A DNA stretch of 64,000 nt from a virus, in IMG/VR virus record IMGVR_UViG_3300026557_000003, positions 2,527 through 66,526 of that record; one strand, 5' to 3'. The notes under the pieces are model-generated. The model saw only the letters and a program-made list of their open reading frames with translations. It ran no database searches and was not told where the DNA came from. Shown here piece by piece: positions 20,447 to 38,300 of this stretch. The first letter of the stretch is position 1; every line of letters begins with the position of its first letter. A program made the translations under genes and the position numbers.

Positions 20447-21958
20447 GTGAAAAGACTCTTCCTGCTACTGCTTTTCTCGCTTATCCTCGGTGGGGCCGTC
20501 GATGCTCAGACGGCCTCCATCTTGTTTGGTGGACCAACTGCCGGTAAACCTTCCAGTTGTAGTATCTCAGGTGGCCCTGATATCTATGTTGACACAACAA
20601 CCCACACAGTATTTGTATGCAAAAGCTCGGGCGTTTGGGGGAATGGGTTTTCAATCGATGGCGCCAGCGGCGGAATAACAAACTCCGCGGGAAATAATGT
20701 CATCACCAAATCGGATGGCACAAATATCGTGGCGTCTGGTTTAAGCGACAATGGTACGACGATAACCGCGGCTGAAACCCTAGCCCTGGGAACAAATAGC
20801 TTGACGATGACCGGTTCGCTGGGTGCTACTGGCGCGCGATTAACCAAGGGCTGGTTTACTGATCTTCAGGTCACTAATGCAATCGCCGGGAGCGTCACGG
20901 GAAACGCTGCGAATATCACTGGAAATCTCGCGGTTGCCAATCTCAACTCCGGTACATCTGCATCATCGTCGACGTTCTGGCGTGGTGACGGCACGTGGGC
21001 TACACCGACTGCCGGTTCTCCCGGTGGCTCAAATACGCAGCTTCAATATAACAATTCCTCGGCCTTTGGTGGCATCTCAGGTGCGACCACGGACGGGACG
21101 ACGTTAACTGCCGTTAGTCCGATTATCCTGAACATTGCCCCGGCTGCAGACTTCACCATCACCCAGAACACCAATAAGACGCCATTTAAGTCCGTCAATA
21201 CGGCAGCGGCCAATAACACCTTAACTCTGAGTGGTGGCCAAACTTGGCTAGGAACGGCAACAGGCGGTTACAAGCTCGATGTTCGAGATACGACCGCAAC
21301 GTCTATTGTTCATTTTTCACAGGGTAACGCCGATTCCGGTGGTTATCTCGTCAATAATGCCGCGGACAACGCCTATATGACCGCTGGAGCGAATCTAAAC
21401 GCGGCGGGGTCAAGCTGGGTTGCGAAGTCCACGACGGCCGTTCTCTTTGGGGCAAATGGTGGAGTCACCACAATTTATCAGGACACAGGATTGACTGCTG
21501 GAAATAACTATACCCCAACCGCCAGATTTTCGATTGGAACGACCGGTATCATCACATTCAATACTACAAATTATGCGAGTTGTACGGCTCTTACAACCAC
21601 GGCCGGCGGAGTAGTTAGCTGCACCGCATCTGATGCCCGCCTGAAACAGGATTTCCAGCGATTCAACAACGGTCTTGATTCAATCCGAAAAGTCAATCCG
21701 ACGATATACAAATGGCGCGAAGGCACGATGTATTCTGACGGCGGCAAGGTCCACCTTGGATTAGTAGCGCAAAATGCAAGGGCCGCAAATCCATTATTTG
21801 TATCCGAGCAGGGTAATGGAACTCTACAACTTGAACCGACAGCGATTCAGGCAGCGTCCATCTCAGCAATCCAAGAACTAGACAAGAAGATCACGGCATT
21901 AACTGCGCTGATCGAGGCGCAGCAAAAGGAAATCAACAAACTGCGCCACAGGAAATAA
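20447..21958 (+). CDS. Tail fibre with C-terminal peptidase S74 intramolecular chaperone and N-terminal signal-peptide-like sequence
   Basis: SDARLKQ...IRKVNPTIYKW...GLVAQ plus terminal coiled coil; Gly/Thr-rich shaft; MKRLFLLLLFSLILGGAVDA|Q. Confidence 0.85.
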   Translation: MKRLFLLLLFSLILGGAVDAQTASILFGGPTAGKPSSCSISGGPDIYVDTTTHTVFVCKSSGVWGNGFSIDGASGGITNSAGNNVITKSDGTNIVASGLSDNGTTITAAETLALGTNSLTMTGSLGATGARLTKGWFTDLQVTNAIAGSVTGNAANITGNLAVANLNSGTSASSSTFWRGDGTWATPTAGSPGGSNTQLQYNNSSAFGGISGATTDGTTLTAVSPIILNIAPAADFTITQNTNKTPFKSVNTAAANNTLTLSGGQTWLGTATGGYKLDVRDTTATSIVHFSQGNADSGGYLVNNAADNAYMTAGANLNAAGSSWVAKSTTAVLFGANGGVTTIYQDTGLTAGNNYTPTARFSIGTTGIITFNTTNYASCTALTTTAGGVVSCTASDARLKQDFQRFNNGLDSIRKVNPTIYKWREGTMYSDGGKVHLGLVAQNARAANPLFVSEQGNGTLQLEPTAIQAASISAIQELDKKITALTALIEAQQKEINKLRHRK

Positions 21959-22539
21959 TGACGACGACCTTAACAACTGAATCAATCTGCTTAATCGCGC
22001 TTTCGCGAATCAGCCCTAGCGGTCAAAAGGGTGATCCGCTACACGCGTTATTGCGTGGAAACCTACCTGCGGCTCTGAATACACTTGCCACGCGGGTTTC
22101 GATGGATGGCCGTCGTCGTCTGCTTTCGCGTGAGTTTGACTTTACGATTGATGGCCCGACCCAGAGCGTTGACCTGTCGCCTGCAACATCAGCGAACGAA
22201 CCGTTGTTGTTGCCATACGATCCGAGCAACGGAAACTATCTACCGTTTACGGCCTGTCGAATAGCCGGAATCGACGCCTATATGATTGCTGATCGACAAG
22301 GACTCGCAATCAAAGAACTGGACGATGGCTATCTCTATTACGCGATTGAGTCACAGAAACTTTATCTTAATTCGCAGACGCCTTTGACCGGTCAAGTGGT
22401 AGTCACCGGTAGTTTTATTCCGGCAATCGACCTGACAACCGAGACGATGCCGACGCTACCGCCAGAATTCGAGGATGACATTGTTGCATTACTAGTTGAA
22501 ACGTTTATGAGTGCCCAACAAGGGCAACAGGCGGCATAA
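21958..22539 (+). CDS. Adaptor-like virion protein
   Basis: PTLPPEFEDDIVALLVE motif similar to 18426-19115. Confidence 0.5.
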   Translation: MTTTLTTESICLIALSRISPSGQKGDPLHALLRGNLPAALNTLATRVSMDGRRRLLSREFDFTIDGPTQSVDLSPATSANEPLLLPYDPSNGNYLPFTACRIAGIDAYMIADRQGLAIKELDDGYLYYAIESQKLYLNSQTPLTGQVVVTGSFIPAIDLTTETMPTLPPEFEDDIVALLVETFMSAQQGQQAA

Positions 22540-22568
22540 GATCATAAGGACGTGATTGGAGGACATGG

Positions 22569-23144
22569 ATGTCCGAAGATTCGCAATTCGATATTCCGGA
22601 ATACATCAAGAAACGCTTTGAAGGCGACGAACTGAAGGCCGTGCAAGAGGAACAGGCGCGGTTGCGGTCGAGATATGGCTACGACGCCAATAGAATCCGG
22701 ACAATGAGCCGGGTTCAACGAGATTTTGAACACAATGAGCGGGAGGTCTTGCTTGCGTCGGAGATGCTTGGCGTTCTATTAAAGGAATCGCCTTTGCCAG
22801 AAGCTGAGATTACTTTTCAGCGACGCCGATTGTCGGAGGCGCTCTGGCGAACGGGAAAACTCGAAGAAGCTCTGATCGCCGCTGCGGACAAAGCGCAATT
22901 CGACAAGGTTCTAGCAATTAAGGCGGCGGTTGAATCGGACGATCTCGAAGTCTGCAACTGTGAGGACGCTAAACACAAGGGTCTAAATATCACACGATAC
23001 GCGACAAAGACCCATATCTTTTCACCGAAACACGGCAAGATAATGCCGATGAAGCAGTGCTCGATATGCGGCCATTTGAATTGCTGTGGGAATATTCCGG
23101 CTAGGCCAAAAGACTCAATCCTTCGCCAAGGAGTCGTTAGATAA
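22569..23144 (+). CDS. Hypothetical helical protein with C-terminal Cys cluster
   Basis: GGAGG RBS; CNC...CSICGHLNC. Confidence 0.65.
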
Positions 23145-23670
23145 CATGAGCCCAAGCCAATCTTCTTATAACTCTACTGATCACGCTGGCGTCCATTCCG
23201 ACTATGCCCGCGATGTCCACACATTTCATTCCGGTTGCCGCCATAGCTCTAACTTCTCGGACTTTTTCCGGACACAGTTTCGCCTGTGGAAGTGCGGTAC
23301 CCATGCCGCGTTTATGTCCCGGGAGGTCAAATGCCCCGCGTTTTTTCTTGGCGCAATCGACAGAATTATCTCTGGGCGTACCAAGAAAGAGATGCGCCGG
23401 GTTCACGCATCTAGGCACATCGCATCGGTGAAGAACGCAAAGAGAAGGCCAGCACTGATGTTCCAGAAAATACGAGAGACGACTTGCGATAACGCCTCGC
23501 CTACCAATCATCATGCCTCCGTATTCCATTCGACCAGAAATGCGTTTGGCACCGGTCCATCGCCAACAGTCGCCTTGCGGGCCATAGCCGGGTGTTTTGT
23601 CAACCTTTGCCCAAAATCTATCAATATGCTTTTCGGTTACGATGGGTTGTTGTATGTTAACAGCGGTCAT
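23137..23670 (-). CDS. HNH homing endonuclease (HNH-2)
   Basis: RFWAKVDK...CWRWTG...[28 protein letters not shown]-terminal HTH. Confidence 0.92.
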
Positions 23671-23793
23671 AGTGCGAATCTCCTTATTAGATTCCTGCCT
23701 TGGCTAGGACTGTTGAGGTATTTCCGTATCTCGGCAGTCCGTTTCTATTATAGACATTATCGTATTACCGTCAATCATTTAAGTGAGGTGTAA
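23146..23793 (+). CDS. Antisense bridging ORF spanning the HNH-2 cassette (candidate)
   Basis: AAGGAG RBS; ATG 2 nt after the upstream stop; its TAA abuts the TTG of the next gene. Confidence 0.4.
23671..23774 (-). promoter_or_regulatory. HNH-2 promoter and leader
   Basis: TTGACG-16-TATAAT; GGACTG/CAGTCC stem; CTAGCCA; GAATCT-aataagg-AGATTC. Confidence 0.7.
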
Positions 23794-25836
23794 TTGGGCG
23801 CACCGTGGAGCATTCCAATCAATTTCGAAGGCGGCTTTATCGGGCAGGAGATAACACCTGACGCCGTCAGTTCGAATCATCTGATCTCGCCTAGTCAGAA
23901 CCTTCTCTATAGCGTCCTCGGTCAACTGGAAAGCTTTCAGGGCTGCATCGCTGGTCTTACGAATGTCGGTGGTCCCCAGATTCAGACCGTCGGCGATACC
24001 TGGGTAACTCTCAATGGTGGAACGGCTGCATACTATACCGGTAAGTCAATCTGGTTCAACGGCGGCTCTGGTCCGGTAAAAACTCCCAATCCATCAAACC
24101 CGGCGGCAATCGTCACCCTTGGGACGAATAGCAGTATCCTGCAAGTTGCGGTCTTAAAGAACGGTGTCTATCAAACGGCATTACAGGCCGGATTAAGTGC
24201 TCCTGATGCGCCGGTTCTTGCTGGCCTCGCAACTCCTGGCGTCGGGTTCACCGGAAAGAATACCGGTACATTTGCGGCCGAGATAAGCAAGATCAGAATC
24301 ACTACTGGCGCTGAGAGTAATCCAAGCCCACCATCGAATGTGGTCGCTGTCACCGCGCAATCGATCAGTATCCAAATTGACGGCCCACCGGTTGACGGAA
24401 CGACCGGTTACAACGTCTATGTGACTGCCAATGGATTTGCCGAGAGTGGTCCTTTTTTGATTCTGCTGCAAATTCAGGAGGTCGATCTGACTGATAATGG
24501 AACAGGATCGATCACGATTGCGACAAAAAACTACACGGCATTAACCGGTCACGTTTACACCGCAAATGATGTTGGCAAACAGATTATTATCGGTGGGACG
24601 TTCACAACCGTAATCGATACCGTTACCGATGCGACCCATATTATTGTTCACGACAATGCACCTGGAACGGTCGTAGGCGCGGCGACGGTCATCAATGCTT
24701 TTCTGAATGGTGTCCCACGTGCTATCGAGATTGAATGGTCGGATGGTGAATTGATCCTGAGCCAGACTCCACCGATAGACCACGATCCGCCGCCGTCTGG
24801 CACTTCCTGCGCGGCCATCGGTAACGTGATGAATGTCGGTGGTTGCTACTCTGGTGTCGGTTGGGCCTGCTCGGATGCCGGGCAACCTGAAGCCTTTAAC
24901 CCCGACAACGTTTCGTTTCTATCAGAGCCTTTACAGTTTCCGTTAGGACGCCCACAAGACGGATTTATATATCTCGTCTGTGCGAATTCGATAAGTGCTG
25001 CTGTCTATACTGGTGCTGTCAATGGTCCGCCTGTGATGGTGAGGCAGATTTGGGACCGGGTAGGTTGTGCCGGGTTTGCATCGGCCGCAATATTTGCGAA
25101 GACCCTTTATCTGTTTACGAATGGCAAGAAGATCGCGCGAATCGATCCAAATGGAAATCTTGATTACGAATTCTCAAAACCGATCAATGCCGAGATCGCA
25201 AGTTGGGATGCATCGAAAGTTGTCGTCGGCTATAGCGATGAGCGACAGGCAATGTGTTTTATTCATAATCAGGAAATACTCTGTTTCCATATGAACCTAC
25301 CAAACGGTCGCGGCGGGATGGGCAGATGGTCAACACCATTAAATCTTGCGGCTGTCACCGGTTCGGGGAACCCGACTGGTAATATCACAGGTGCGTACAC
25401 GAACGCCGGAAAACTCTATTTGCTGGCTTTTGAATCCGCCAATTACAATATTTATAAGTTCGATGAATCGGGGGCAGGTGTCAGTACCTGGTTCTTTACA
25501 ACCGGTTGGCAAACAGCCTCAGGCGGTCTTGCGCCCGCTGAAGGTTTTCGCGGAACTAGAATCAGTCAGGACCTAAAGACGACAAAGAAGATTCTCTTGG
25601 ATTACTCGAGCTCGACTGATATTGCGCTGGCTGGTGGTATCTATAATTTCAATCTCGGGACGGGCGCGTTTGTGCGCCCGATTTCAACGACCCTGCCGCA
25701 CGCCAAGAGAATATCAAAATGGATGCGGGCAAACATTAAAGCCGGTCGGATATTCGCGGTCAATTTTGGAGGTACTGGCGCGGGTCAAAAGTTTTATGCA
25801 CTCGAAGTGGAAGGGGTAAGCAGTCGGATTCACTGA
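23794..25836 (+). CDS. Tail nozzle/DNA-stabilisation-like protein (P22 gp10-like beta-propeller)
   Basis: 680 aa beta-rich with internal Ig/fibre-like insert; synteny. Confidence 0.6.
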   Translation: MGAPWSIPINFEGGFIGQEITPDAVSSNHLISPSQNLLYSVLGQLESFQGCIAGLTNVGGPQIQTVGDTWVTLNGGTAAYYTGKSIWFNGGSGPVKTPNPSNPAAIVTLGTNSSILQVAVLKNGVYQTALQAGLSAPDAPVLAGLATPGVGFTGKNTGTFAAEISKIRITTGAESNPSPPSNVVAVTAQSISIQIDGPPVDGTTGYNVYVTANGFAESGPFLILLQIQEVDLTDNGTGSITIATKNYTALTGHVYTANDVGKQIIIGGTFTTVIDTVTDATHIIVHDNAPGTVVGAATVINAFLNGVPRAIEIEWSDGELILSQTPPIDHDPPPSGTSCAAIGNVMNVGGCYSGVGWACSDAGQPEAFNPDNVSFLSEPLQFPLGRPQDGFIYLVCANSISAAVYTGAVNGPPVMVRQIWDRVGCAGFASAAIFAKTLYLFTNGKKIARIDPNGNLDYEFSKPINAEIASWDASKVVVGYSDERQAMCFIHNQEILCFHMNLPNGRGGMGRWSTPLNLAAVTGSGNPTGNITGAYTNAGKLYLLAFESANYNIYKFDESGAGVSTWFFTTGWQTASGGLAPAEGFRGTRISQDLKTTKKILLDYSSSTDIALAGGIYNFNLGTGAFVRPISTTLPHAKRISKWMRANIKAGRIFAVNFGGTGAGQKFYALEVEGVSSRIH

Positions 25837-27347
25837 TGTCCAGTTTTGCAATACCATTAGGTGATAACTTCGCACAGACGCTACAGGAAAGGGCGCTGCT
25901 CGACCACCTGACGACCGCACTTGCCTCGGGCAATATTCAGGCGTTTGCTCAGGCTGTAGCTGCGGCGCTGACCTCTGGTGTAATCGTCAACCTGCTACGT
26001 AATAGCGATCTGAATACCTCGGACGCCGGTCGTCGTGGATTTACTTATTCAATCGGTGGTGGTGCGGTAAACGATGCTGCGAACGTCTGCGCATTTTGGT
26101 ATGCGCCTGGAAGCGCGGCGGCCGGTCCTTTTGTTGACAGCGTGACGGCAACAGAGAGTCCTGATGCCATCGCGGCCGTCAAGTACGTTTCTGACGGCGC
26201 AATCAGTACTGGAAGCCCTCACGCGCTTTCGATGGTGACCGCAACTTTTCTCGCCTCGGATGTCGGTAGGGCTGTCTGGATTGATGGCGCATTGGGGGGC
26301 GCGCCACTTATAACAACCATTTCAGCCTTTACCGATAGCACGCATGTAACTGTTACAGCGGCGGCGACCTCGACTGTTTCAGGAAAACTTGTGCGCATCT
26401 ACAACGCAGGGGCCAGCACCGTCTGGAATTTACCAAAAGGCTACGTCGAATGGGGTGGCGCTTTTACACTAATGAGTCCGCTGGAAAAGAACTTCGTCAG
26501 GCCCGGCGTGGCAAACAGTATTTTTATCATTGGTAGCGTCAGGCTCAATCCGGACACAGGCGCGTTACCGCTCACCGACGGCTACCGAGTTCGAGTTTCC
26601 TGCTGGGATAACACCGCAGGACAGGTGAAGATAATCGAAGGCGCGCCAATTCCGATTTCAGCGGCTCTTATTCGTGGTGCTGGCGCGGTCACACGAAAGT
26701 ATATTGTTAAATACTTTACGGCCGCCGGGGATTTCTGGTTTTCGGATGCGGTGTCACCTGTGGCTGTTACGTCGACTCCTGACCCTACGGCGGTCGATCC
26801 GGGACAAGTGGAAGTTACATTTCCGACCTATCCAGGGGTACGGACATATGAGGTTTATCGGTCTGATTCAGTTGCCGGTTTCAGTAACTTCTACCGGATC
26901 GCCACTGAGTCGACCGGGATAAGCAGCGCTCAGGATGTTGGTGGCAGATTTGAAGGACCGTATACTATCGCGGCAAAGAACTGGCGAGCGCAGGCGTTTG
27001 CGGCCGGGGTCATCGGCTCTGGCTGGTCACCGATAAGCTTCCATATCTTAACACCGGCGACATACAACCTGGGCATAACGGCAGCAAATTCACAATGGCT
27101 ACGATTCGATATTGTGGATGCGAGCGGTGCTGTTGTTTCGATACCACCGTGGACGCTTAATTTCGACTTCGCCGGGTTTAGTTATGCGTCAGGAAAATGG
27201 CAGATGTCGGCCTCGGATCAACAGGCGGCCGGGGACTTCGAATCGAAAAGTCCCTCGCCTTCCGGGGGTATTCCGTCTGGCGGCGGTGGCGATCCGGGCG
27301 GTGGTGGATCGATCGGGCGTGGCGGCAATCAAGACCTTGGGTTCTAA
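25836..27347 (+). CDS. Virion tail protein
   Basis: TGATG coupling; beta-rich; contains a segment resembling the insert in the previous gene. Confidence 0.6.
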   Translation: MSSFAIPLGDNFAQTLQERALLDHLTTALASGNIQAFAQAVAAALTSGVIVNLLRNSDLNTSDAGRRGFTYSIGGGAVNDAANVCAFWYAPGSAAAGPFVDSVTATESPDAIAAVKYVSDGAISTGSPHALSMVTATFLASDVGRAVWIDGALGGAPLITTISAFTDSTHVTVTAAATSTVSGKLVRIYNAGASTVWNLPKGYVEWGGAFTLMSPLEKNFVRPGVANSIFIIGSVRLNPDTGALPLTDGYRVRVSCWDNTAGQVKIIEGAPIPISAALIRGAGAVTRKYIVKYFTAAGDFWFSDAVSPVAVTSTPDPTAVDPGQVEVTFPTYPGVRTYEVYRSDSVAGFSNFYRIATESTGISSAQDVGGRFEGPYTIAAKNWRAQAFAAGVIGSGWSPISFHILTPATYNLGITAANSQWLRFDIVDASGAVVSIPPWTLNFDFAGFSYASGKWQMSASDQQAAGDFESKSPSPSGGIPSGGGGDPGGGGSIGRGGNQDLGF

Positions 27348-27351
27348 AGGA

Positions 27352-27861
27352 TTAAATATGCGTCCAGTTTTCTCCGCGAAGAATATGTGCAATCTCACTT
27401 CTACTCAAATTGAATTTGATCGCAAGCTGGCGTCTCGACAGCAGGCCTCCAAGGCTACGTATTTCGCGCACCGCCTCTTCTGTTGTCTTTGCCATTCCAT
27501 GATTAGAACCTCTACGAAGTCTATTTCTAACTCTCGCGTCTTCTGCGTTCTCAGCCGCCGTTCCTTCGCGAAGATGATCTGGATTAACGCAATTTTTAAT
27601 ATCACAGCCATGGAGCACGTACAATTCAGGCCATTTATTGTAAGCAATGCGATAAGAAGCTACGTGCGCTCCTACCTGGACTTTTCGAAATTGAATCTTG
27701 CCGGGTTGAATCCCGGCCTTCATTTTTGGACGGCGATTGCCAGTTTTCCATTTCCAGCAAGTGCCCCACGGGCCGTATCCGGTGGACTTATCAACCTTTG
27801 TCCAGAAATAGTTAATATCCTTGTCGGTGAGTTGAAGGCGGTTTATATTATCAGTAGCCAT
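27352..27861 (-). CDS. HNH homing endonuclease (HNH-3)
   Basis: FWTKVDK...CWKW...VLHGCDIKNCVNPDHLREGTAAENAED. Confidence 0.92.
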   Translation of the reverse strand: MATDNINRLQLTDKDINYFWTKVDKSTGYGPWGTCWKWKTGNRRPKMKAGIQPGKIQFRKVQVGAHVASYRIAYNKWPELYVLHGCDIKNCVNPDHLREGTAAENAEDARVRNRLRRGSNHGMAKTTEEAVREIRSLGGLLSRRQLAIKFNLSRSEIAHILRGENWTHI

Positions 27862-27939
27862 TTCTTGAAATCTACCTTTCAATTTTGGTTAGAGGCTTCG
27901 GGTTGCAGAAACAACTCGGGGCCTCATCGTGCATTATAG
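27358..27939 (+). CDS. Antisense bridging ORF spanning the HNH-3 cassette (candidate)
   Basis: AAGGA RBS; ATG 11 nt after the upstream stop; TAG 18 nt before the next start. Confidence 0.4.
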   Translation: MRPVFSAKNMCNLTSTQIEFDRKLASRQQASKATYFAHRLFCCLCHSMIRTSTKSISNSRVFCVLSRRSFAKMIWINAIFNITAMEHVQFRPFIVSNAIRSYVRSYLDFSKLNLAGLNPGLHFWTAIASFPFPASAPRAVSGGLINLCPEIVNILVGELKAVYIISSHFLKSTFQFWLEASGCRNNSGPHRAL

Positions 27940-27941
27940 CA
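27865..27941 (-). promoter_or_regulatory. HNH-3 promoter and leader
   Basis: TGcTATAAT; GAGGC/GCCTC stem with TGTTTCTGCA loop; CTAACCA; TTGAAA-ggtaga-TTTCAA. Confidence 0.7.
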
Positions 27942-27956
27942 CGGAAGGAGTGTATT

Positions 27957-28550
27957 TTGGGCTCGGGCAATGATCAAGCAAAACAATTAGCGAACAAAGC
28001 CGATACTTCATCGGTAACGACGCTTGACAACTCGACCTTTAATCCGCTTGCCAAAGCTGGAATTGACAGGGCTGGCACTGATCTTCAGAATATTCAGGCC
28101 GGTAAGTTCGGGAGCCTGCCACTTGTTCAGGCGGTCAATCAGGCGGCGAACAGGTTGAAATCGTGGAATCCGGCCCCAATGGGTGATGCTGCGCTGGCCG
28201 CCGGTGCGAGCGGGCAAGGTGGGTATGCGACCGCAGAGGACTCCTATCGTCGGAGATTACAGGACCGGGCCGTTAGCGACCTGATGCCACAGGCGGTGGA
28301 GGCTGAGCGGAATTATTCGAGTTCCATATTATACCCTGGGGCGCAGGGTGAATCGGCTTATGATTTAGCCAAGGCTGCTGGCTACGCGGGCGCGGGAGGC
28401 CAAGCTGCAAATTTGTACAATCTGGAATCGAATAACGGGTTCTGGAATCATCTGACGAACTCACTTGGCCAGAGTCTCGGCCAAAGTCTTGGCGGCGTCA
28501 GTGGTAGCTACAATAGCGGAAACGGCCAGTTCACGGGTGGCTTTGGTTAA
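27957..28550 (+). CDS. Ejection/pilot-like protein (P22 gp7-like)
   Basis: GGAAGGAG RBS with TTG; Gly/Ala/Asn-rich, GQSLGQSLGG C-terminus. Confidence 0.6.
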   Translation: MGSGNDQAKQLANKADTSSVTTLDNSTFNPLAKAGIDRAGTDLQNIQAGKFGSLPLVQAVNQAANRLKSWNPAPMGDAALAAGASGQGGYATAEDSYRRRLQDRAVSDLMPQAVEAERNYSSSILYPGAQGESAYDLAKAAGYAGAGGQAANLYNLESNNGFWNHLTNSLGQSLGQSLGGVSGSYNSGNGQFTGGFG

Positions 28551-29254
28551 AGAATATGCTTCCACGTTTCACGTCTAACAACATTTCGGATGGTGGCGGG
28601 GCTTACACCGTATCGCTTCCCCTGTGCGTAAAGAGAGCATATCGCTGCGTTCTGGCGTATCTCTCTAACATCCTTTTCAGTCAGACGCGCAAAGCAATGC
28701 AATTCGCCCCTCGCTGGCCTTTGCTGGCTTGCTGCATTGGTGGCGTCTTCGACATGTTTCCAGGTCTGACATTTAATGATCCTCTTTGCAGTACAGGCTG
28801 CAACGCTGAACCTACGACCTATTTCTTCGTAACTCAATCGCGGAAAAAGCGAACGAAGTTCTGTTATTTCGACCTCTGTAAGTGTTGTGTTGTAATTATC
28901 TTCTCCCCGTATCCCGCGGCCCTTCGCTGCCATATCAGCACTATTCTCAGCGTTCGTGCCCTTGAAAAGGTGTGCGGGATTAACGCAGGAACGGTTATCG
29001 CAGTGATGGCAAACGAGCAATTTTGGCCATTCGTGAAAATGAACCATAAAGGAGAATCGGTGGGCTCCTACTATTCTCCTTGGAATGCCTCGTTGTATGA
29101 TCGCCAGACTTCCGTATCCTTGATTGCCAATAGTGCCAGTCCACGACCAGCAATCTCCGTCAGGACCAAAACCCGGCGTTTTGTCAACTCTTTCCCAGAA
29201 CATTTTAAGATGCTTGTCGGTAAACACCGGTGGGTTTATATTAGTCGAAGCCAT
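28547..29254 (-). CDS. HNH homing endonuclease (HNH-4)
   Basis: FWERVDK...CWSWTG...[27 protein letters not shown]; duplicated C-terminal HTH. Confidence 0.92.
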   Translation of the reverse strand: MASTNINPPVFTDKHLKMFWERVDKTPGFGPDGDCWSWTGTIGNQGYGSLAIIQRGIPRRIVGAHRFSFMVHFHEWPKLLVCHHCDNRSCVNPAHLFKGTNAENSADMAAKGRGIRGEDNYNTTLTEVEITELRSLFPRLSYEEIGRRFSVAACTAKRIIKCQTWKHVEDATNAASQQRPARGELHCFARLTEKDVREIRQNAAICSLYAQGKRYGVSPATIRNVVRRETWKHIL

Positions 29255-29332
29255 ATTCTGAATCACCTTTCAGTTTGTTGGTTAGAGCCGCTGCGGACAT
29301 TTAGCGTGTCCGCGCGGCTTGCTGTATTTTAA
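28556..29332 (+). CDS. Antisense bridging ORF spanning the HNH-4 cassette (candidate)
   Basis: ATG 6 nt after the upstream stop; TAA 15 nt before the next start; weak RBS. Confidence 0.4.
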   Translation: MLPRFTSNNISDGGGAYTVSLPLCVKRAYRCVLAYLSNILFSQTRKAMQFAPRWPLLACCIGGVFDMFPGLTFNDPLCSTGCNAEPTTYFFVTQSRKKRTKFCYFDLCKCCVVIIFSPYPAALRCHISTILSVRALEKVCGINAGTVIAVMANEQFWPFVKMNHKGESVGSYYSPWNASLYDRQTSVSLIANSASPRPAISVRTKTRRFVNSFPEHFKMLVGKHRWVYISRSHILNHLSVCWLEPLRTFSVSARLAVF

Positions 29333-29334
29333 CA
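29258..29334 (-). promoter_or_regulatory. HNH-4 promoter and leader
   Basis: TGtTAAAAT; AGCCGC-GCGGACA stem with CGCTAAA loop; CTAACCA; CTGAA-aggtga-TTCAG. Confidence 0.7.
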
Positions 29335-29346
29335 CAGATTTGGAGT

Positions 29347-30033
29347 TTGATTTTGCTTATTACCATTCAGGGTGACACGATTCCAAATTGGCAGCCTCTA
29401 AATCCAACTGTGGAAATGCGGATATTTGCCAATGATGCGTTTGTAACCGACGAAGGTGTACTCATACAGCCTGGGCCATTGTTCTACCAAGCCGTGGAAT
29501 GCACTCCGAATCTAACGCTCAAAACATTAGCCTATCCGACCTTTACAATTGAGGCAACTACTAACGGCACACCAAACAACCAGACCTACAGTTTCCTATT
29601 TTATTCAGGCCCCGGAGTCAACGGCCGTCCAATCAACGGCGGTCAGTTCGTGGGATTCCAAAACCTGCCCGTTCCTTTCGCTCCGACGACTACGACACTC
29701 GCAGCGCTCGAAATTAGTGCCGGTCAGTTTTTCCCGCCTGGGTGGTCGATTGATGAAGCCCTAATCAGTGCGCTACAGGCCCAGCAATCATCGGTTACGT
29801 TTCCTGCGAATAATCCGACACCATCCGTATTCAATCGCGAGAACTTCATAACCGCAAATACGCAGACAACGAATTACACCAATTTTTTGAATCCGTATAA
29901 TGGCCAACGGATTGAGATTCTCGTTAATGATATTTTCACGTCCATTTTCGGGACGCAGTTTAATCAAGGGACGGTCGTCGGACTCCGTTTCGATCTTGGT
30001 CAATGGTACTTCACTGGATTTCAAACCAACTAA
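29347..30033 (+). CDS. Virion protein
   Basis: TTG start with GGAG RBS; beta-rich. Confidence 0.6.
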   Translation: MILLITIQGDTIPNWQPLNPTVEMRIFANDAFVTDEGVLIQPGPLFYQAVECTPNLTLKTLAYPTFTIEATTNGTPNNQTYSFLFYSGPGVNGRPINGGQFVGFQNLPVPFAPTTTTLAALEISAGQFFPPGWSIDEALISALQAQQSSVTFPANNPTPSVFNRENFITANTQTTNYTNFLNPYNGQRIEILVNDIFTSIFGTQFNQGTVVGLRFDLGQWYFTGFQTN

Positions 30034-30035
30034 TT

Positions 30036-31280
30036 ATGAAAAAACTATTACTTTTGCTCACGTTCTTCTTTGCGTTTACAGTCTTGGCCGAGGCCCAATT
30101 CTCAACCCCTATCCAGTCTGGCCCGACGCCGATAGGTATACACTGCACTCCGAATCCCCAGTTAACTCCTTTCTTCGTCCGTACCTCGGACTGGCAAACC
30201 TTTGTCTGTACCGCGCTCGACACCTGGACGCCGACAAGTGGCGGCGGGGGAGGTGGTGGAATATCGACGATTAACGGTAGCGGCATAGCGGCTCAGATCA
30301 TTCAAGGTACGGCGGTAGGCGGTCCGAATGTATCGTCAGTCGCAGGGGTAACCACGATTAGTAATCCATCGGCTGGAGCGGCGACGGCAGGTATCGTAAC
30401 GGCTGGAACGCAGATCATCGATGGCGCAAAGACGTTAACTGGCGCTACGACCGTTACAAATGCAACGGTTAATAGTTTGAATGTTGGCCCAACTGGGGCG
30501 ACCAATCCAGCGTTTTCGGTAGACTCCAGTCCAACGGTAGGATTTGGCCTGGGTGGCATTCAAGTCATAGGTGGCACAAACGGCTCAAACCCGACCATTC
30601 AGGTAGTTTCCCCACTGTCGCCGACCGGACTTAATATAAACACCCTTGGAGCATCTGGAATTACTTTTCAGGTTAACGGGGTAAACACTTTTACCGTTGG
30701 CCCTGCCGCAATTTCAACCCACGGCTCGATGACGATGTTCGCTCCGAATGCTTCGATTCTAATGCAGGGCTCGACCTCTGGAAGCTCAACGATCATCCCG
30801 CAGGCAATTGCCGGAAATTATACGTTTCAGCTTCCGAATGCTAATCCGGCCGTCGGTCAGAATGTATACGTGGCTGGATTTTCCGCTGGCATAGTAACGC
30901 TTGGCTATCAGAACTCCGGTGGGGTAACGGCATCACCTTATGATCTTGGCGCGGAATGGGACGCCATACCGACGGCCTCACAGGAGATGCTTCATTTTGT
31001 AGCCAACCGGTCATTTACGTTGGCTGTCACCGGCTCAACCTGCCACTCGAACTTTGCGGCAACCGCTCAGGCGGATTTTGTCGTTCAGTATTGTCCGTCA
31101 GGTGTGTCATGTATAAGCAAGGGTACTTTACGGTTTGCGGCTACCGGTGTCTTTTGCTCCGTAGTTAGTCCGGTATCGGTTACCGTGTCATCGGGTGATG
31201 TTGTAAAGATCATCGCACCGGCCAGCCCAGACGGGACTCTATCTAATGTAACTTTTACCTTGAAAGGAACAGTGCCTTAA
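30036..31280 (+). CDS. Tail fibre/spike-like protein with signal-peptide-like N-terminus
   Basis: MKKLLLLLTFFFAFTVLAEA|Q; Gly/Thr-rich shaft; C-terminal jelly-roll-like domain with paired Cys. Confidence 0.7.
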   Translation: MKKLLLLLTFFFAFTVLAEAQFSTPIQSGPTPIGIHCTPNPQLTPFFVRTSDWQTFVCTALDTWTPTSGGGGGGGISTINGSGIAAQIIQGTAVGGPNVSSVAGVTTISNPSAGAATAGIVTAGTQIIDGAKTLTGATTVTNATVNSLNVGPTGATNPAFSVDSSPTVGFGLGGIQVIGGTNGSNPTIQVVSPLSPTGLNINTLGASGITFQVNGVNTFTVGPAAISTHGSMTMFAPNASILMQGSTSGSSTIIPQAIAGNYTFQLPNANPAVGQNVYVAGFSAGIVTLGYQNSGGVTASPYDLGAEWDAIPTASQEMLHFVANRSFTLAVTGSTCHSNFAATAQADFVVQYCPSGVSCISKGTLRFAATGVFCSVVSPVSVTVSSGDVVKIIAPASPDGTLSNVTFTLKGTVP

Positions 31281-33385
31281 TGCGTTTTGCAAGTTTAATT
31301 CTCAAGCGAATCATATTTCTATCTATTCTCCTTTTCGTCGCATCTATTCTTGCGATGGCGCAGCCATATAATGGAACACTTCATGGGACGCCGGTTTTTG
31401 GCCCGGCCAAGTTTAGCAACGGTCTAACATCTGTCACCGATGCGAATTACCTATCGCTGCCATCTGGCGTATTCAATTTCAGTTCGTCCAGTAGTTGGGC
31501 GCTTGAGGCATGGTTAAAAACAACGGGTTCGTCCACTGGCGTAGCTATAGCGTCTGGCTCACTTGGCGATATTGCACCGGGCCAGCCGTCTTTTTGGTTC
31601 GGTACTTCGGGCGGTAATTTCGTTTTAAATATCACCGGAAGCGGGGCATTTACAGGGACTCTTGACAGTGGAATCGCCATCAACGATGGGGCTTTCCATC
31701 ATTGTGCAATATCGGTGAACGGGGGAACGACTATCAAATTGTACGTCGACGGGGTCCTGGGAAATACTTTCACCGGCGTAGTGACCACTATGGTTCACAC
31801 AAATGGATTGATTGGACGGTATACAGTGACTTCATTCGCCTGGAATAGCGCGATAGATGAAATCGCTGTCTGGGGTTCAAATAAATATCCCGTGGCCTTC
31901 ACTCCACCATCAAGTCCATACGTCGGAACAGAATCTAATCTGATCGCACTTTATCATCTTCAGGCAAATGGGGTTGATTCGTCTACGCCTCCTGGGATTT
32001 CCGCGTCACCAAATCAGATCGTTATCAGTACCACAGGAAATTCTGTGGTTTTGACCGGTATTACGACTACATGGACGCCTGGCACACCGGGGACACCTAC
32101 GTTTACATTGTCTGGTGGTACAGGTGCGTCCATTACAGCCCAGACAATAGCGAGCGGAACCAGTGCCACATTAACAATAACGGCCGGAAGTGCGCTCGGA
32201 GTTTTGACGATTACAGACCCAAGCACCGGATTTACCACAACCGTTACGGTTGTTTCAACTCCGTCAACCTCCACAATTCCAATGAGCGATCCCGGAATCA
32301 TATTTAGTCCGTACAACTGGAATGTCACGGGTGGAACTGCGAATACAGTCAATCCAGGTGCGTATTTTAGGACGATATTCAACGGTACGCAGGTATCGCT
32401 AAACTTCACGACCAGTGCGGATTCGTCACCTTATCCTCAATTATGGGCACGGGTCGATAACCAATATTGGCAACAGATCGTACTGACGGCCGGTAATCCA
32501 CAAGTCCTGATAACGTCAAGTCTTCAGAACCGGAAGCATCTCGTGGAAGTTGTGGTCAAATCAACTTCCTATAGTGGCGTTGACAGGTGGAGTGGACCGC
32601 AAACCATAGTTACGGTCACGGGAATCGTCGTTGATTATCTTACAACTCTCTCGCTACCGATTCGCAAAACCAAGAATATTCTGATATACGGAGATTCCAT
32701 TACCGAAGGATTGTTGAGCAAGAATAACACTGCCTCGGGTCAGCCAGATCAAAGCGATATCCTTGGTTGCTATTCCTATGCGCTATCGACTGCCGTGGAC
32801 GCTGAGGTTGGCATTGTGGCATTCGGGGGAACGGGGCTGCTTACCAGTTTTGCAGGCGTGCCAGCCCTGACATCTTCTTACAATCTAATTTACAACGGGG
32901 CATCGAGAGTTTTTACGCCCGCGCCTGATTTGGTGATTTACAATGAGGGCACAAATGACGGCTCAAGTATCGTCACTGCTTACGGCACGGTTGTTAGTGC
33001 GATTCTCGCTGCGGCTCCGAACGCGAAACAGTTACTTCTTATTCCATTCAACAATAGCCACGCCTCTGACATTGCGACCGTTGTAACCAATGCGGGAAAT
33101 CCAAAGGTCACATCACAGTCGACCGTGGGCTGGTTTAACTCGTCAGATTCAAGCGACGGTTTGCACCCCTACGATTATTCGCACGTCGGCCTAATTGCTC
33201 CGAAACTGTTTCCGGTTGTGATGGCGCTTCTTTATCCGTCGACCTGTTTAAACCGCGTGCGAACAATTAGGATTATCGCCGAATTGACGCTACCAAGAGG
33301 GCACGGCCGTGTTTTTCAGGGTAACCCACGAATCCCAGACTGCCAATGCTTTATCGTTGGCACGGTGGATCCGGTTACGTGGTAG
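31280..33385 (+). CDS. LamG/concanavalin-like plus SGNH (GDSL) hydrolase protein with signal-peptide-like N-terminus
   Basis: ALEAWLK...DGAFHHCA...LYVDG...IDEIAVW (LamG); GDSITEG, GGTG, EGTND, DGLHP (SGNH blocks). Confidence 0.85.
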   Translation: MRFASLILKRIIFLSILLFVASILAMAQPYNGTLHGTPVFGPAKFSNGLTSVTDANYLSLPSGVFNFSSSSSWALEAWLKTTGSSTGVAIASGSLGDIAPGQPSFWFGTSGGNFVLNITGSGAFTGTLDSGIAINDGAFHHCAISVNGGTTIKLYVDGVLGNTFTGVVTTMVHTNGLIGRYTVTSFAWNSAIDEIAVWGSNKYPVAFTPPSSPYVGTESNLIALYHLQANGVDSSTPPGISASPNQIVISTTGNSVVLTGITTTWTPGTPGTPTFTLSGGTGASITAQTIASGTSATLTITAGSALGVLTITDPSTGFTTTVTVVSTPSTSTIPMSDPGIIFSPYNWNVTGGTANTVNPGAYFRTIFNGTQVSLNFTTSADSSPYPQLWARVDNQYWQQIVLTAGNPQVLITSSLQNRKHLVEVVVKSTSYSGVDRWSGPQTIVTVTGIVVDYLTTLSLPIRKTKNILIYGDSITEGLLSKNNTASGQPDQSDILGCYSYALSTAVDAEVGIVAFGGTGLLTSFAGVPALTSSYNLIYNGASRVFTPAPDLVIYNEGTNDGSSIVTAYGTVVSAILAAAPNAKQLLLIPFNNSHASDIATVVTNAGNPKVTSQSTVGWFNSSDSSDGLHPYDYSHVGLIAPKLFPVVMALLYPSTCLNRVRTIRIIAELTLPRGHGRVFQGNPRIPDCQCFIVGTVDPVTW

Positions 33386-33419
33386 AATCTGGCGTCCGAA
33401 CTCAACCAAGGGAGTATCT

Positions 33420-33791
33420 ATGAAACGATTGATTGGGATGATAATCCTCTGTGTGATGGCGGGAATACCACTGTGTTTCTTACAGAATCATCTTGTGAAG
33501 GCGCAAGCACAGACAAAGGACATTGCGACCGATAAAAAACCGGCCGCCGTGACGCCGTTCACAATAGAGGAAAGCTATGTGTTGACCGACTCTGAGAAAA
33601 CGAAACTCGCACAGGACAGGATCATCGATGAACTGAACGACAAATTGGCAGTCGCAGTGTTCACGAGGAAGGCCGCAATTAATCAGTTCAACGAGATCGC
33701 TGCGAAATATCCTGGCGAGGTATTTACCAAATCGAAGAACGGTTTATACGAAGGCCACCGCCCGCCGACAGAAGCCGAAAAAGGTAAGTAA
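33420..33791 (+). CDS. Secreted/membrane-anchored coiled-coil protein
   Basis: AAGGGAG RBS; MKRLIGMIILCVMAG...VKA|Q. Confidence 0.65.
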   Translation: MKRLIGMIILCVMAGIPLCFLQNHLVKAQAQTKDIATDKKPAAVTPFTIEESYVLTDSEKTKLAQDRIIDELNDKLAVAVFTRKAAINQFNEIAAKYPGEVFTKSKNGLYEGHRPPTEAEKGK

Positions 33792-35344
33792 TGTCAAGTT
33801 ACGCAATGCCGCCGAGTGTCACAGCCGCGCTACAGGCAGGACTAGCCGCGCGAAAACAGCAGTCGAGCGAGAGCGACGGTGATATTCCGCCGTCTGAGAT
33901 TCAGGACTACTCAGCGCCGGAACAACCGGTTAACTTCCCTTTTAATGGACGCTCGGTCTCTGGTCCGCCACAGCAAATGCAGCCCGGTCCGATGGCTGAT
34001 CAACCTGCGTACTCAGGGCCGCCGGTCAACAGGCAGGCAATTGCTGCGCTCGCACAACCTTCAACGTCGGCGGTAGCAAGACCGATGGGCGAGAACTTGT
34101 CAGATGGCACTGACGCTCCGGCGAATGCTCCGCAACAGGCAGGGCCGCCTCCACCGAATATGGCTGTCCCGACACTCAACGACCCTAATTTGCCACACAC
34201 GTCGTTAAATACTTTAAACAATGGTACGCCAAAACCGAACCTACAGGACGACAAGTATCAGCAAATGGGCCGGGGCGCATCGATGAAAAGCATCTTCCTG
34301 AACTCGGTAATGAATCACGGGCTGGCTGGTCTTGTGCCTGGCGCGATCGGTGCAGTCGTTGGGGCGCTTGATCCAAGTATGGGGCGACAGAATGCCTACA
34401 ATATCGACAATCAACGCTGGCTCAATAGCAAGATGGCGGAAGAGAAGGTTAAACAGGAAGACCCGTACTACCAGTCACAGTTGAAAGTAGCTACGCAAGG
34501 AAGTGAGATTCCCAGTCAGGTTGAAAAGTATAATCTTGAACAGAAGATCAATTATGGATTGCGCGGTGATTATCTAAAACAGCAGGGGCAGCAACGCCTG
34601 AACGAAATTGCGGCTCGCGGTCTAAATCAAAAGACAGCGATAGAAACGCGGCAGTCCCTTAAGAATACCGGCGATCTTGATGGACTTACCGCCCTTTATA
34701 CCGGAATGATCGATCCTGACACCGGCCAAAAGTTCACAGCCGACGAAGCGGCTCAGCAGGCGAAAGCGGATATTTTGGATCAGAAGACAGCAAAGACCGA
34801 AAAACTTTGGTCGCAGCAAAATCTTGCGGATAGTCGCGCGGCACAGGTAGATGCGATAACAAAGAATCTGCCGCAGAAGTTCAAGGACCTCCACGACAGG
34901 CTTACCGGGTTTCTGCAAAATGTTCAGACGAATAAGGAACGCTTGGAACTCCAAAAAGGTAACGCTGCCGACCGTGCCGAGAATCAGCGCCAATTGCGAC
35001 AGGGGACGGCGCTCCAAAGCGAAGTGAATATCCTTGAGAACGACCACAAGGCGCAAAACGCGATTGTTAACAATCCGTATAACCAGACACCCGACAAGAA
35101 ACCTTTGGTTGACGCTGCCAATAAGCGAATTCAGGAAATCAATTCTCGCCTCGACGAGATAACCCAACAGCGACTCGAAACCGCAGGCGCTCCCGGCAAA
35201 GGACAGAAGGCGACGAAACCCGGCGGTCCCACGCTCTCTACTGGTCACAAAGCGGGTGACACCGTGAAAGTCGGTGGCAAAGATGTTAGAATCACAAAGG
35301 TTCATCCAGACGGAAAAACATTTGACTACGAAGCAATTCCATAA
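33791..35344 (+). CDS. Ejection protein (P22 gp20-like position)
   Basis: Pro/Gln-rich N-terminus, hydrophobic GLAGLVPGAIGAVVG segment, long coiled coils, KOW-like C-terminus. Confidence 0.6.
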   Translation: MSSYAMPPSVTAALQAGLAARKQQSSESDGDIPPSEIQDYSAPEQPVNFPFNGRSVSGPPQQMQPGPMADQPAYSGPPVNRQAIAALAQPSTSAVARPMGENLSDGTDAPANAPQQAGPPPPNMAVPTLNDPNLPHTSLNTLNNGTPKPNLQDDKYQQMGRGASMKSIFLNSVMNHGLAGLVPGAIGAVVGALDPSMGRQNAYNIDNQRWLNSKMAEEKVKQEDPYYQSQLKVATQGSEIPSQVEKYNLEQKINYGLRGDYLKQQGQQRLNEIAARGLNQKTAIETRQSLKNTGDLDGLTALYTGMIDPDTGQKFTADEAAQQAKADILDQKTAKTEKLWSQQNLADSRAAQVDAITKNLPQKFKDLHDRLTGFLQNVQTNKERLELQKGNAADRAENQRQLRQGTALQSEVNILENDHKAQNAIVNNPYNQTPDKKPLVDAANKRIQEINSRLDEITQQRLETAGAPGKGQKATKPGGPTLSTGHKAGDTVKVGGKDVRITKVHPDGKTFDYEAIP

Positions 35345-38300
35345 TGCTGACAGGCACGGCCGATATTTCAGAGATTGACGATCCGCAATCGGCTACCCCT
35401 CCGTCTGCACCGAAAACCCAGACTGCGACAGTTGACGACATTGATACTGAATCGGTGAAAGACCCGCGAACACTTGTCCGACGATATGCGCCTGACTATG
35501 GACTAGACCCCGACTTTGCTGAAAAGGTAGCCGATAGAGAATCGATTCACTTCAAACCAAGTGTCACGTCTGGAAAGGAATTATCACCCGCGAATGCCAT
35601 CGGGACGATGCAGTTACTCAGCGATACCGCGAAAACGGAAGGCGTCAATCCCTATAATCTTCACGACAATATCAAAGGTGGATTGTCTTACCTGAAAAAG
35701 CAGATTGACGAATTCGGCGATCAGCGATTGGCCTTGGCGGCCTACAATGCAGGGCCGGGAGTCGTGCGCGACTTCAGGGATGGTACGAATACATCGGGTA
35801 AGAATCCAAATCGTAGAGTTACTGGCGGTATCCCACCGTTCAAGGAAACACAGGATTATGTCGATGCGATCTCTCCTGTTCAAAGGGGCACAGCGACCGT
35901 TGACCAGATCGACAGTCAAACCCCGACATCGGGAACGGCAACAGTCGATCAGATAAGCACAGAAGCCCCGACGGTCAACGTAGGCGCTCCTAGTCGTCCA
36001 GTAGTGAATGCACCGACTGACAGCTTTGACATTCGCCGTAATTTGCCAAAGGATAAACCCGTCGCTGATTCGTTTGATATTCGGAAGAACCTGCCGCGTG
36101 ATAGGCAGATTACATCGACAGTTCCAACGACCGCACAGACATTCGATGCTCTCAACAATCCAGGTCCAGGACAGGAAGTATCGAATATTACTGGACAGCC
36201 AATTAAATCGGTGGCTCAGCAAGCACAGTCTGCGCGTGATTTCACAACGAATCAGATACTCCGTCATCGGCAAGCTGACATTGGCGCTCCAGTCGAAAAA
36301 CAGCGGCTGCAAATGCTGGCCGCACTATCGCCAGAAGACAAATTGAAAACCGCCAATCAAATCGCGAGCCAGCGACCATTGACGACCGAAGAACAGGCGG
36401 CCCTTGGTATTAGTCCGCATTATGCATCAACGCTTTTCAGCGCGGGTGCGCGAGAGATCGATTATGGACTGGCCGGTGCTGCGAGACTGGCACAAGCGCC
36501 GTTCGGTGGAGCGAAGCCCGGTGAATCCCCGTCTTTGCTTGAAGAATTCCAGTCTGGCGCAACGCACGCCGCAGAGCAAATGCAGCGACAGATTAACCGT
36601 GAAGGCGTTCGCGGCCTGAGCGGTGAATTGACTGAGGATGTCGGCGCGCTCGCCCCTGACATCGCCGGAACGGTCGCCTTACCGGAAAGCAAAATCGCAC
36701 AGGTTCTATACTGGGGCGCGGTGGGTGGACTTAAGACCGCTGGCCGTGGAGGAAGTGCGACCGACATAGCGACAAGCGCAGCCACAAATGCCGCATTACC
36801 GTCGATTCTACATGGCACAGCCGAATTACCGATTGTTCAGCGTGTTCTTGGCAGTGGCGGCTTGATGTCGACAATTACACTCGCGCAAGGTGGTGACCTA
36901 AACGCTATCGGTAAATCCTTCATCCTTGGTGGGTTGATGGGTATTCCGGGCGGCGAACGGCCACCGGATGATATATTGGCGAAAGCAACCAATTCACCCG
37001 AGCTTCAGGAAGCCGTAATCGAGCACGCGAAAAACCCGTCCGCTGAAACCTTTGATAACGTAGCCAAAACCGCAGAGAAAGCCGGACTTGATGCTTACGA
37101 GGCTCAAAAGTTCGCGACCAATGTTGACAGCTTGAAATCGGCGTCGTCTCCCACTCCTGAAGGTGCAAAGCCTGCTCCACTGGAGAATACCACGACGCCA
37201 ATAAGCCCAAAACCTACGGAGGAAACCAATGCCGAAAATCTACGGGGAAGCCAAAAAATATTACCAGAAGAAGGGCAAATCGGAGCAGGAAGCGAAATCA
37301 ATCGCAGCGGCGATAACGCAGAAATACGGCAGCCCAGCGGACAGGGCCGAACTGGAGAAGGACGCCCAGGCAGCACGGAAGAAGAAATAAAGCCGCCAGG
37401 GATTGGGCAGATTTTCGACTATCGCAATCAGCGATACCGCGTCGATAGTGTTGATGACGAGCATATTCGCGCAACTGACCTCTCCGGCAAAGAGGGAATG
37501 CGAGTGTTCACGCGCGAGGATTTTGATCGAGTAACGAACATACCCGGAAAGAAGATACCGACAGGGGAAGAGCAACGACAATCAGAGGTAAAATCCAATG
37601 AACAAGCTACCGAACGGCTATCAAGTGCGCCCAATTTCGACCACGAAGTTAAAACCGTATCCGATGCCCTCAACGATGACAACCATCCCTTCAGCCAGGC
37701 CCTTGACCGCATCGCCGGGGGTGACACGTCCGATGGAGCAATCAATGCCGCTCGCACAGCCGCAACGGGACTCGACGAATCAAGCGTCAACGATGCAATC
37801 GACGGAGCAACCCGCCTCGCCAATAAACAACCGACAGAAAATCCTGAACCACGTACTAGCGAGAATCCAGCAGCGCAAGAAGGCGTGGGGAAATCCAGTG
37901 GGCCAGTAGGTATCAAGAATCGCATAACTGATGCTGAACGCGAAGCACAAGGCCAGCCGCCTGTCGATACTTCCGATCAGAAACGGTCATTCGATCAGGT
38001 TGTCGAAGCTGGCAAGGCCGCCGTCGATGATGGTCGCATCAATCCCGGTCAACTCGCGGAACGGATAGCAGCTAAGCCGCGGCCGTTAACGCCGGAAGAG
38101 ACGGCATCGCTCCTTTACCACAAAACGCAGTTGCTCAACCACGAAGATTCGATAATGAAGGAATTGCGCGAAAACCGTAATAGCGACAATCCCGATATCG
38201 ATAAAGAAATCGACGCTCGCGGACGGCTACAGGCGGCTCAAGAACAACTCGACACGGCCCGGGTGGCCAGTCGCAAATCAGGATACGAACAAGGTCTGGG

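Follow-up and report, generated by a model that had tools for sequence, protein, structure and literature searches.

Tailed-phage assembly is, in the textbook view, wholly cytoplasmic. Why, then, should several proteins of one phage tail module, among them a fiber with an S74 chaperone, begin with what look like secretory (Sec) signal peptides? The question is raised by a 64,000-nucleotide stretch (the window in what follows) of the IMG/VR virus record IMGVR_UViG_3300026557_000003, which covers most of one viral contig of 69,197 bp; the phage is of a short-tailed type, uncultured, and from soil. A preliminary description of the window proposed Sec-type leaders, each cleaved before glutamine, for four open reading frames (ORFs) that start at positions 20447, 30036, 31280, and 33420. 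Here, we report that the leaders of the two fibers (20447 and 30036) and of an esterase (31280) are well supported by sequence comparison as real, cleaved leaders of the Sec/signal peptidase I type. We consider it rather probable that the two trimeric fibers and the fiber-associated LamG/SGNH esterase are made with these cleavable leaders and are matured in the periplasm, not in the cytoplasm. The fourth ORF is a separate case. In literature searches on Sec signal peptides of tail fibers, no description was found for tailed phages.

Leader peptides in the tail module

The N-termini quoted in the preliminary description are correct. As translated, they are M(GTG)KRLFLLLLFSLILGGAVDA|Q for 20447, MKKLLLLLTFFFAFTVLAEA|Q for 30036, MRFASLILKRIIFLSILLFVASILAMA|Q for 31280, and MKRLIGMIILCVMAGIPLCFLQNHLVKA|Q for 33420, the vertical bar standing at the predicted cut. 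All four have a positively charged n-region (MKR, MKK, MR..KR, and MKR, respectively), a hydrophobic core, and a small-x-small site followed by glutamine at +1 (VDA|Q, AEA|Q, AMA|Q, and VKA|Q), with neither a lipobox cysteine at +1 nor a twin-arginine (RR) motif. The cores of 20447, 30036, and 31280 are 13 to 15 residues long and rich in Leu, Phe, and Ile; cores of about 7 to 15 residues are the criterion for Sec/signal peptidase I substrates, longer ones suggesting an anchor, and by this criterion the 18-residue core of 33420 is ambiguous. For 20447, the GTG is the sole start codon that the frame offers downstream of a stop at 20434. ORF 30036 starts 2 nt past the upstream stop, and an in-frame ATG at 30003 would merely extend its n-region; the start of 31280 overlaps the upstream stop (TAATG), and that of 33420 has a GGGAG Shine-Dalgarno sequence 5 nt upstream.

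When a permissive rule for leaders is applied to internal segments of the ORFs of this phage, 0.6% of them satisfy it, and among its approximately 75 ORFs only these four have a leader with a small-x-small site before glutamine, all of them within 13.3 kb. When the same neutral site-picker is applied, glutamine takes the +1 position in 4/4 leaders here, compared with 4 to 16% in three control bacterial genomes. Leaders recur on fiber-type proteins of two distant syntenic relatives, the IMG/VR contigs L001 and L025 (69.9 and 70.9 kb), and the small-x-small site and the glutamine are kept across unrelated proteins and across relatives while the leader sequences themselves diverge. The claim of Sec-type leaders is well supported for 20447, 30036, and 31280, where leader-bearing and leaderless homologs meet at the cut site, leaders recur in relatives, and cysteines are paired; we do not extend it to 33420, which has no homologs and stands in the position of an ejection protein.

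The meeting of the two kinds of homologs is clearest in the esterase (31280–33385, plus strand, 701 aa), in which LamG (concanavalin-like), CE2_N, and SGNH/GDSL esterase parts are indicated by Pfam and by the catalytic blocks. Its leader comprises residues 1 to 27 (nt 31280–31360; predicted cut AMA|Q), and the mature start QPYNGT lines up, at +1 to +3, with the first residues of leaderless esterase homologs. The nearest homologs, at 45 to 57% identity, fall into two groups. Leader-bearing members (P0133-P0138, P0141, P0145, and P0207) carry leaders unrelated in sequence, and their +1 residue is Gln, Gly, Thr, Asn, or Ala; leaderless members (P0139, P0144, P0148, and P0211) open with M-S-x-NGTVVGSPTF, precisely where the mature protein is predicted to start. 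From the two groups it follows that the domain can do with or without a leader, and that the leader stops at a domain boundary, as in a cleaved signal peptide.

Laminin_G_3 scores above its cut-off (56.5), Lipase_GDSL_2 (23 bits; cut-off 32.9) and CE2_N (26.1; cut-off 27.9) fall below theirs, and the PHROG match is to "neck passage structure" (E 1e-20). The catalytic blocks YGDSITEG, EGTND, and DGLHP are conserved in an alignment with 14 homologs, with GDS, G.ND, and D..H intact. Two further observations concern this gene. An in-frame ATG at 31355–31357, two codons before the cut, would give MAQPYNGT..., like the leaderless MSFNGT, MSYNAS, and MSHNGT, i.e., a possible leaderless isoform. The last ~45 residues (33250–33385), including three cysteines, are absent from all homologs and look like read-through past the usual C-terminus.

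The two fibers and their cysteines

Fiber 1 (20447–21958, plus strand, 503 aa) is recognized by a PHROG tail-fiber match and by Pfam S74. Its leader comprises residues 1 to 20 (nt 20447–20506; predicted cut AVDA|Q) and is followed by a short N-module with a Cys38/Cys58 pair and then by fiber repeats; a second pair, Cys379/Cys392, lies directly before the S74 autocleavage motif SDARLK, which begins at residue 395. Peptidase_S74 (PF13884) matches residues 395 to 450 (E 5.9e-12, 46 bits against a cut-off of 22), and this C-terminal domain with its SDxxxK motif bears out the earlier assignment of 20447 as an S74-chaperoned fiber. Promoter and terminator scans gave hits at chance level only, so there is no sign of independent expression of the fiber genes. 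In that chance-level scan, a hairpin rich in G+C with a run of mostly T behind it was seen at 20492–20517, within the coding sequence of the fiber 1 leader and spanning the cut site.

Fiber 2 (30036–31280, plus strand, 414 aa), assigned by fold and homology, has its leader in residues 1 to 20 (nt 30036–30095; predicted cut LAEA|Q). In its structure model the leader is a helix; next come a small beta module (residues 27–66), modeled with confidence, a shaft of low confidence, and a tip of very high confidence. The N-module holds Cys37/Cys58 (predicted local distance difference test score, pLDDT, 82–89); beyond it come a glycine run and the shaft, and then a C1q/TNF-like tip (residues 300–414, pLDDT 96–98) with Cys336, Cys353, Cys359, and Cys374. 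A fold search returned fibers of Agrobacterium phage 7-7-1 and of Klebsiella phages, and the tip resembles C1q/TNF heads. Neither fiber has an ATG near the predicted cut. Homology of the N-modules of fibers 1 and 2 to the P0113-type or "LPATC" families is not supported statistically: a hidden Markov model (HMM) of the core only gave no match, the initial match having arisen because the leader and the glycine run drove the score.

The gene just upstream of fiber 2 (29347–30033, plus strand, 228 aa) is leaderless and encodes a proximal, particle-side fiber domain, recognized by homology to P0246 and P0248. Over its full length the product corresponds to residues 1 to 219 of the one-piece leaderless fiber P0246 (36% identity, E 3e-39), and residues 62 to 414 of fiber 2 correspond to residues 216 to 674 of the same protein (E 5e-45), P0246 being 674 aa long and the best leaderless homolog. 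P0248 shows the same arrangement, with a proximal domain and a fiber 2-like distal part in one protein. The leader and the 41-residue two-cysteine module of fiber 2 thus stand in the place of the P0246 proximal domain. On these alignments, fiber 2 is the distal half of a split fiber and the adjoining leaderless gene is its proximal half, which argues that the leader-bearing proteins are true fiber parts and not unrelated morons. The proximal domain gene is kept in L001 (8927–9640), and in L025 the proximal domain directly follows a leader. At the orthologous position in L001 there is a leaderless fiber without any of the four tip cysteines of fiber 2.

Presence of a leader goes along with paired cysteines in the homologs at large. 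A leader is present in 35 of 121 homologs of fiber 1 and absent from the other 86; exactly two cysteines occur in the first 60 mature residues of 27/35 leader-bearing versus 2/86 leaderless members, the total cysteine count is even and nonzero in 31/35 versus 20/86, and cysteine density is threefold higher when a leader is present. Both leader-bearing S74 fibers have a cysteine pair just before the S74 cut, as against none of the 13 leaderless ones. A second set of 150 representatives of fiber 2 (30 with and 120 without a leader) behaves alike: the shared tip domain carries a cysteine pair in 26/30 leader-bearing versus 11/120 leaderless members, and totals are even in 25/30 versus 25/120. The N-regions divide into a number of clusters, and cysteine pairs turn up among the members of five or more of these. 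By Pfam, no phage-encoded helper, i.e., a Dsb, signal peptidase, or glutaminyl cyclase gene, was found.

Glutamine at +1 and the host

Glutamine at +1 is the signature of the Bacteroidetes Q-rule (Bochtler et al. 2018, PMC5837995; PMC10653852), which has been described as exclusive to Bacteroidetes. Phages of Porphyromonas gingivalis are reported to follow the Q-rule, and their signal-bearing proteins have been read as an adaptation to the export and glutaminyl-cyclase system of the host (Matrishin et al. 2023, PMC10367356). Among the leader-bearing homologs of fiber 1, the neutral site-picker finds glutamine at +1 in 21 of 35, against the 4 to 16% of the three control genomes. AGGAG/GGAGG Shine-Dalgarno sites precede many genes of the present phage; the Bacteroidota −7 promoter motif TAnnTTTG is not enriched (21 matches versus 28.6 expected), and neither are D-S/T-x O-glycosylation sequons. 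Among the viral contigs that we fetched, proteins with a leader and glutamine were found in Shine-Dalgarno-using contigs with a G+C content of 0.50 to 0.59 (this phage, L001, L008, L009, and L025), not in low-GC contigs without Shine-Dalgarno sites. Taken together, the use of Shine-Dalgarno sites, the lack of a TAnnTTTG or sequon excess, and the contig pattern argue, indirectly, against a classical Bacteroidota host. The host probably belongs to a lineage, so far unsurveyed, with a high fraction of glutamine at +1, and the data hint at a Q-rule-like regime outside classical Bacteroidota.

Searches of genome contigs were of limited help in naming this lineage. An alignment of the 680-aa tail protein (see below) gave no host match, and an esterase alignment retrieved only relatives at 29 to 35% identity, in Acetobacter, in a delta-proteobacterial metagenome-assembled genome (MAG), and in Planctomycetota MAGs.

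Assembly model and alternative explanations

If the leaders act as proposed, the fibers and the esterase would cross unfolded into the periplasm late in infection and would be cut there before a glutamine that can cyclize to pyroglutamate. Folding and trimerization would follow in the periplasm, aided in fiber 1 by the S74 intramolecular chaperone, and disulfides would staple the N-module and the distal tip. More speculatively, the N-modules may dock on fiberless tails built in the cytoplasm once holin lesions admit particles to the periplasm, with fiber 2 docking through the leaderless proximal domain of 29347–30033; were docking to occur in this way, export would give the fibers access to host oxidative folding. 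That the exported fibers join the particle at lysis is a tentative proposal. Held with similar reserve is the fuller picture of two-compartment assembly, in which heads and core tails are made in the cytoplasm, the fibers and the esterase travel via Sec and are trimmed at glutamine, disulfide-bonded, and clipped on when the holin breaches the membrane, the glutamine at +1 marking export under a Q-rule-like regime in a lineage of soil hosts outside the classical Bacteroidota.

Several points weigh against periplasmic maturation followed by attachment. The joining itself is inferred, and exported fibers that join particles have no precedent in the literature searched. On the tip-domain tree, leader-bearing members cluster and the leader changes only nine times, so few independent events lie behind the association of cysteines with leaders and the Fisher values overstate independence; a test of leader and cysteine pair on independent pairs was underpowered, with two supported pairs. 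The esterase family shows no cysteine parity, and the leaderless fiber of L001 retains an N-terminal two-cysteine module. The LPATC HMM gives E 0.9 and 0.16 with the N-modules of fibers 1 and 2, mere resemblance. The virion proteins of Cellulophaga phage phi18:3, whose leaders are like those described here (see the last section), have no detectable sequence similarity to this phage, and their detection by tandem mass spectrometry (MS/MS) could reflect co-purifying material.

The exported proteins might instead never join a particle and remain free in the periplasm or on the surface of the infected cell, where the esterase would strip acetyl groups from receptor polysaccharide or peptidoglycan and the fibers would mask or bind receptors (superinfection exclusion, or protection of progeny from re-adsorption) or act as adhesins like those of Bdellovibrio. 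There is company for such a role: signal-bearing, Q-rule-obeying proteins of Porphyromonas phages were proposed to be modifiers of the host outer membrane (PMC10367356), about 5% of the carbohydrate-active enzymes of soil prophages carry signal peptides (PMC13507307), and exported S74- or TNF-tipped fibers of Bdellovibrio, the mosaic adhesive trimer (MAT) fibers, work on the cell surface (PMC10769870). Fiber genes also occupy different positions in related phages, in the manner of mobile cassettes. Against this, apart from the leader-bearing genes the tail module has no mosaic genes of the receptor-binding type, and the particle would otherwise be without a variable fiber. Fiber 2 is moreover the distal half of what is elsewhere a one-piece leaderless fiber, its proximal half being retained next door, and the L001 fiber in the orthologous position is leaderless. 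A signal peptidase I substrate goes no further than the periplasm without an additional secretion system, of which there is no sign here; in phi18:3, proteins with like leaders are annotated as virion proteins. We regard export without joining, the chief alternative, as rather unlikely, and the split-fiber relation and the phi18:3 proteomics annotation favor, indirectly, attachment at lysis over a non-virion surface role.

It is also conceivable that the hydrophobic N-termini do not serve Sec export at all and are uncleaved tethers, assembly helices, or segments bypassed by downstream starts, with assembly in the cytoplasm as usual. The in-frame ATG of the esterase, with its product so like the leaderless homologs, and the transmembrane length of the 33420 core would suit this explanation. 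So would P22 gp7, a small virion ejection protein of a short-tailed phage from which the cytoplasmic host protease OpdA removes a 20-residue N-terminal peptide with no export (PMC8402733). But the cores of the leaders are rich in Leu, Phe, and Ile and are not SAR-like, the small-x-small site and the glutamine persist across unrelated proteins and relatives despite diverging leaders, paired and even-numbered cysteines accompany the leaders, and no ATG near the cut could serve as a downstream start in fibers 1 and 2. Cytoplasmic assembly of this kind seems to us very improbable, and periplasmic maturation of the fibers and the esterase remains the reading that we prefer.

If fibers are routinely routed via the periplasm, phages would gain disulfide formation, an N-terminal pyroglutamate, and possibly glycosylation, and the last assembly step would be tied to the order of lysis events. 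Fiber function would then depend on host Sec, signal peptidase, and Dsb, a dependence that would amount to a novel type of host factor and might offer a route to resistance, and the fibers of engineered phages would need different expression.

ORF 33420 and the ejection-type proteins

ORF 33420 (33420–33791, plus strand) encodes an orphan of 123 aa, with the 18-residue hydrophobic core, a stretch QNHLVKA|Q, and then a soluble part of ~90 aa; two cysteines lie inside the core. It has no homolog among 5.8 billion proteins and no Pfam or PHROG match, its Atlas matches are at chance level, and no sequence or fold similarity of the gp14 type was found. Directly downstream of it stand a 517-aa protein and a 1928-aa protein (35344), together at 33791–41130 on the plus strand, which are of the ejection type and without leaders. 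The large one has an SLT lytic transglycosylase domain in residues 45 to 152, and the pair has no cysteine in 2445 residues, whereas most other virion proteins here have 0.4 to 1.4%. The order 123, 517, 1928 aa is thus small, medium, large with SLT on the last, as in the internal/ejection proteins of T7.

As judged from sequence, ORF 33420 may be secreted with a cleaved leader, held in the membrane by a signal anchor, or one of the ejection proteins. That it is a small internal or ejection protein in a T7 gp14-like position, or some other membrane-anchored protein whose helix inserts in the membrane, and not a secreted tail protein, comes just short of an even chance in our estimate. Its neighbors, which resemble the gp15/gp16 order of T7, speak for it, as do the length of the core with its two cysteines and the position of a small hydrophobic ORF, kept in L001 (15897–16211, ..KIIA|QEK) with no sequence similarity to 33420. 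On the other side, the 7-residue c-region ending in VKA|Q suits a cleavable leader, the L001 analog also has A|Q, and no homolog or fold match identifies an ejection protein. In our model, ORF 33420 would be set apart as a membrane-targeted small protein beside ejection proteins, its cleavage uncertain. The P22 gp7 case mentioned above differs in that gp7 is cut by OpdA, not by signal peptidase, and the two proteins have no sequence similarity. In L001, the small hydrophobic ORF is separated from the esterase by an inserted minus-strand gene (15190–15750, 186 aa), whose product has dockerin-like repeats and a leader that ends in VNA|Q.

Genome context

Elsewhere in the window, the large terminase (5309) and the major head protein (14546) are recognized by PHROG/Pfam matches. 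The core tail is not leader-bearing, as shown by two conserved tail proteins of 680 aa (23794) and 503 aa (25836), which lie at 23794–27347 on the plus strand and are leaderless; the former is 41 to 49% identical to its L001 counterpart, and the latter has a weak PHROG match of the pectin-lyase type. No close relative among cultured phages was found by DNA or by tblastn of fiber 2 and the 680-aa tail protein, a TerL search gave distant matches only, and a scan of IMG/VR with the 503-aa protein alone gave no match. In a survey of sequencing runs, the phage was found in one soil metagenome only, its source. Two other ORFs may be mentioned. ORF 28556–29332 (plus strand, 258 aa) has 13 cysteines (5%) and no family match and overlaps a long minus-strand ORF at 28547–29266. 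ORF 61139–61585, near the genome end, has a lipoprotein-like start (MKPIRKSTLAILCAAVVMQSSC...) and no family match, and could be an outer-membrane spanin or other lipoprotein.

Comparison with known systems

A close parallel among cultured phages is Cellulophaga phage phi18:3 (NC_021794, Pachyviridae), a short-tailed phage of ~71 kb with a Bacteroidota host. Three of its proteins, gp085, gp086, and gp087, adjacent and large, have a leader followed by glutamine as here (..FGYS|Q, ..GVSA|Q, and ..GLNA|Q), and in its record they are listed, on the strength of MS/MS proteomics, as structural or tail proteins; we found no report of their N-termini, nor any comment on their leaders. phi18:3 also has a cysteine-free pair of 499 and 1935 aa like that encoded at 33791 and 35344. 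Its leader proteins, however, have few cysteines, and its host is a member of the Bacteroidota, whereas the present phage uses Shine-Dalgarno sites.

The MAT fibers of Bdellovibrio bacteriovorus carry a signal peptide, are trimeric, and do their work outside the cytoplasm after export (Caulton et al. 2024, PMC10769870). They share with the fibers described here the signal peptide, a conserved N-domain, the trimeric fiber, and a swappable tip that is either an S74 chaperone/protease (SDxxxK) or TNF-like. Their N-domain of ~130 aa is beta-rich and is set apart by size and description from the ~40-aa N-module here, and they are encoded by genes of a cellular predator and anchored on its own surface; the present genes belong to the tail operon of a phage, and one of the proteins is half of a split phage fiber. 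The Porphyromonas gingivalis phages have leaders of the signal peptidase I type that expose glutamine at +1, as here, but their leader genes are of unknown function or encode capsid and spanin proteins, and no tail fiber is mentioned among them.

Fibers without leaders complete the comparison. The endosialidase of phage K1F and the L-shaped fiber of T5 use the same autocleaving S74 chaperone principle as fiber 1, yet they are leaderless, poor in cysteine or free of it, and presumably assembled in the cytoplasm. The one-piece fibers P0246 and P0248 have the proximal domain, shaft, and C-terminal tip in common with 29347 and fiber 2, but they too lack a leader, contain hardly any cysteine or none, and presumably assemble in the cytoplasm; in the present phage the fiber is split, and its distal part has a leader and three cysteine pairs. 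Set beside these systems, the present phage is notable for a split fiber of which one half would stay inside and the other be exported, for orthologs with and without a leader, and for glutamine at +1 in a Shine-Dalgarno-using soil phage.

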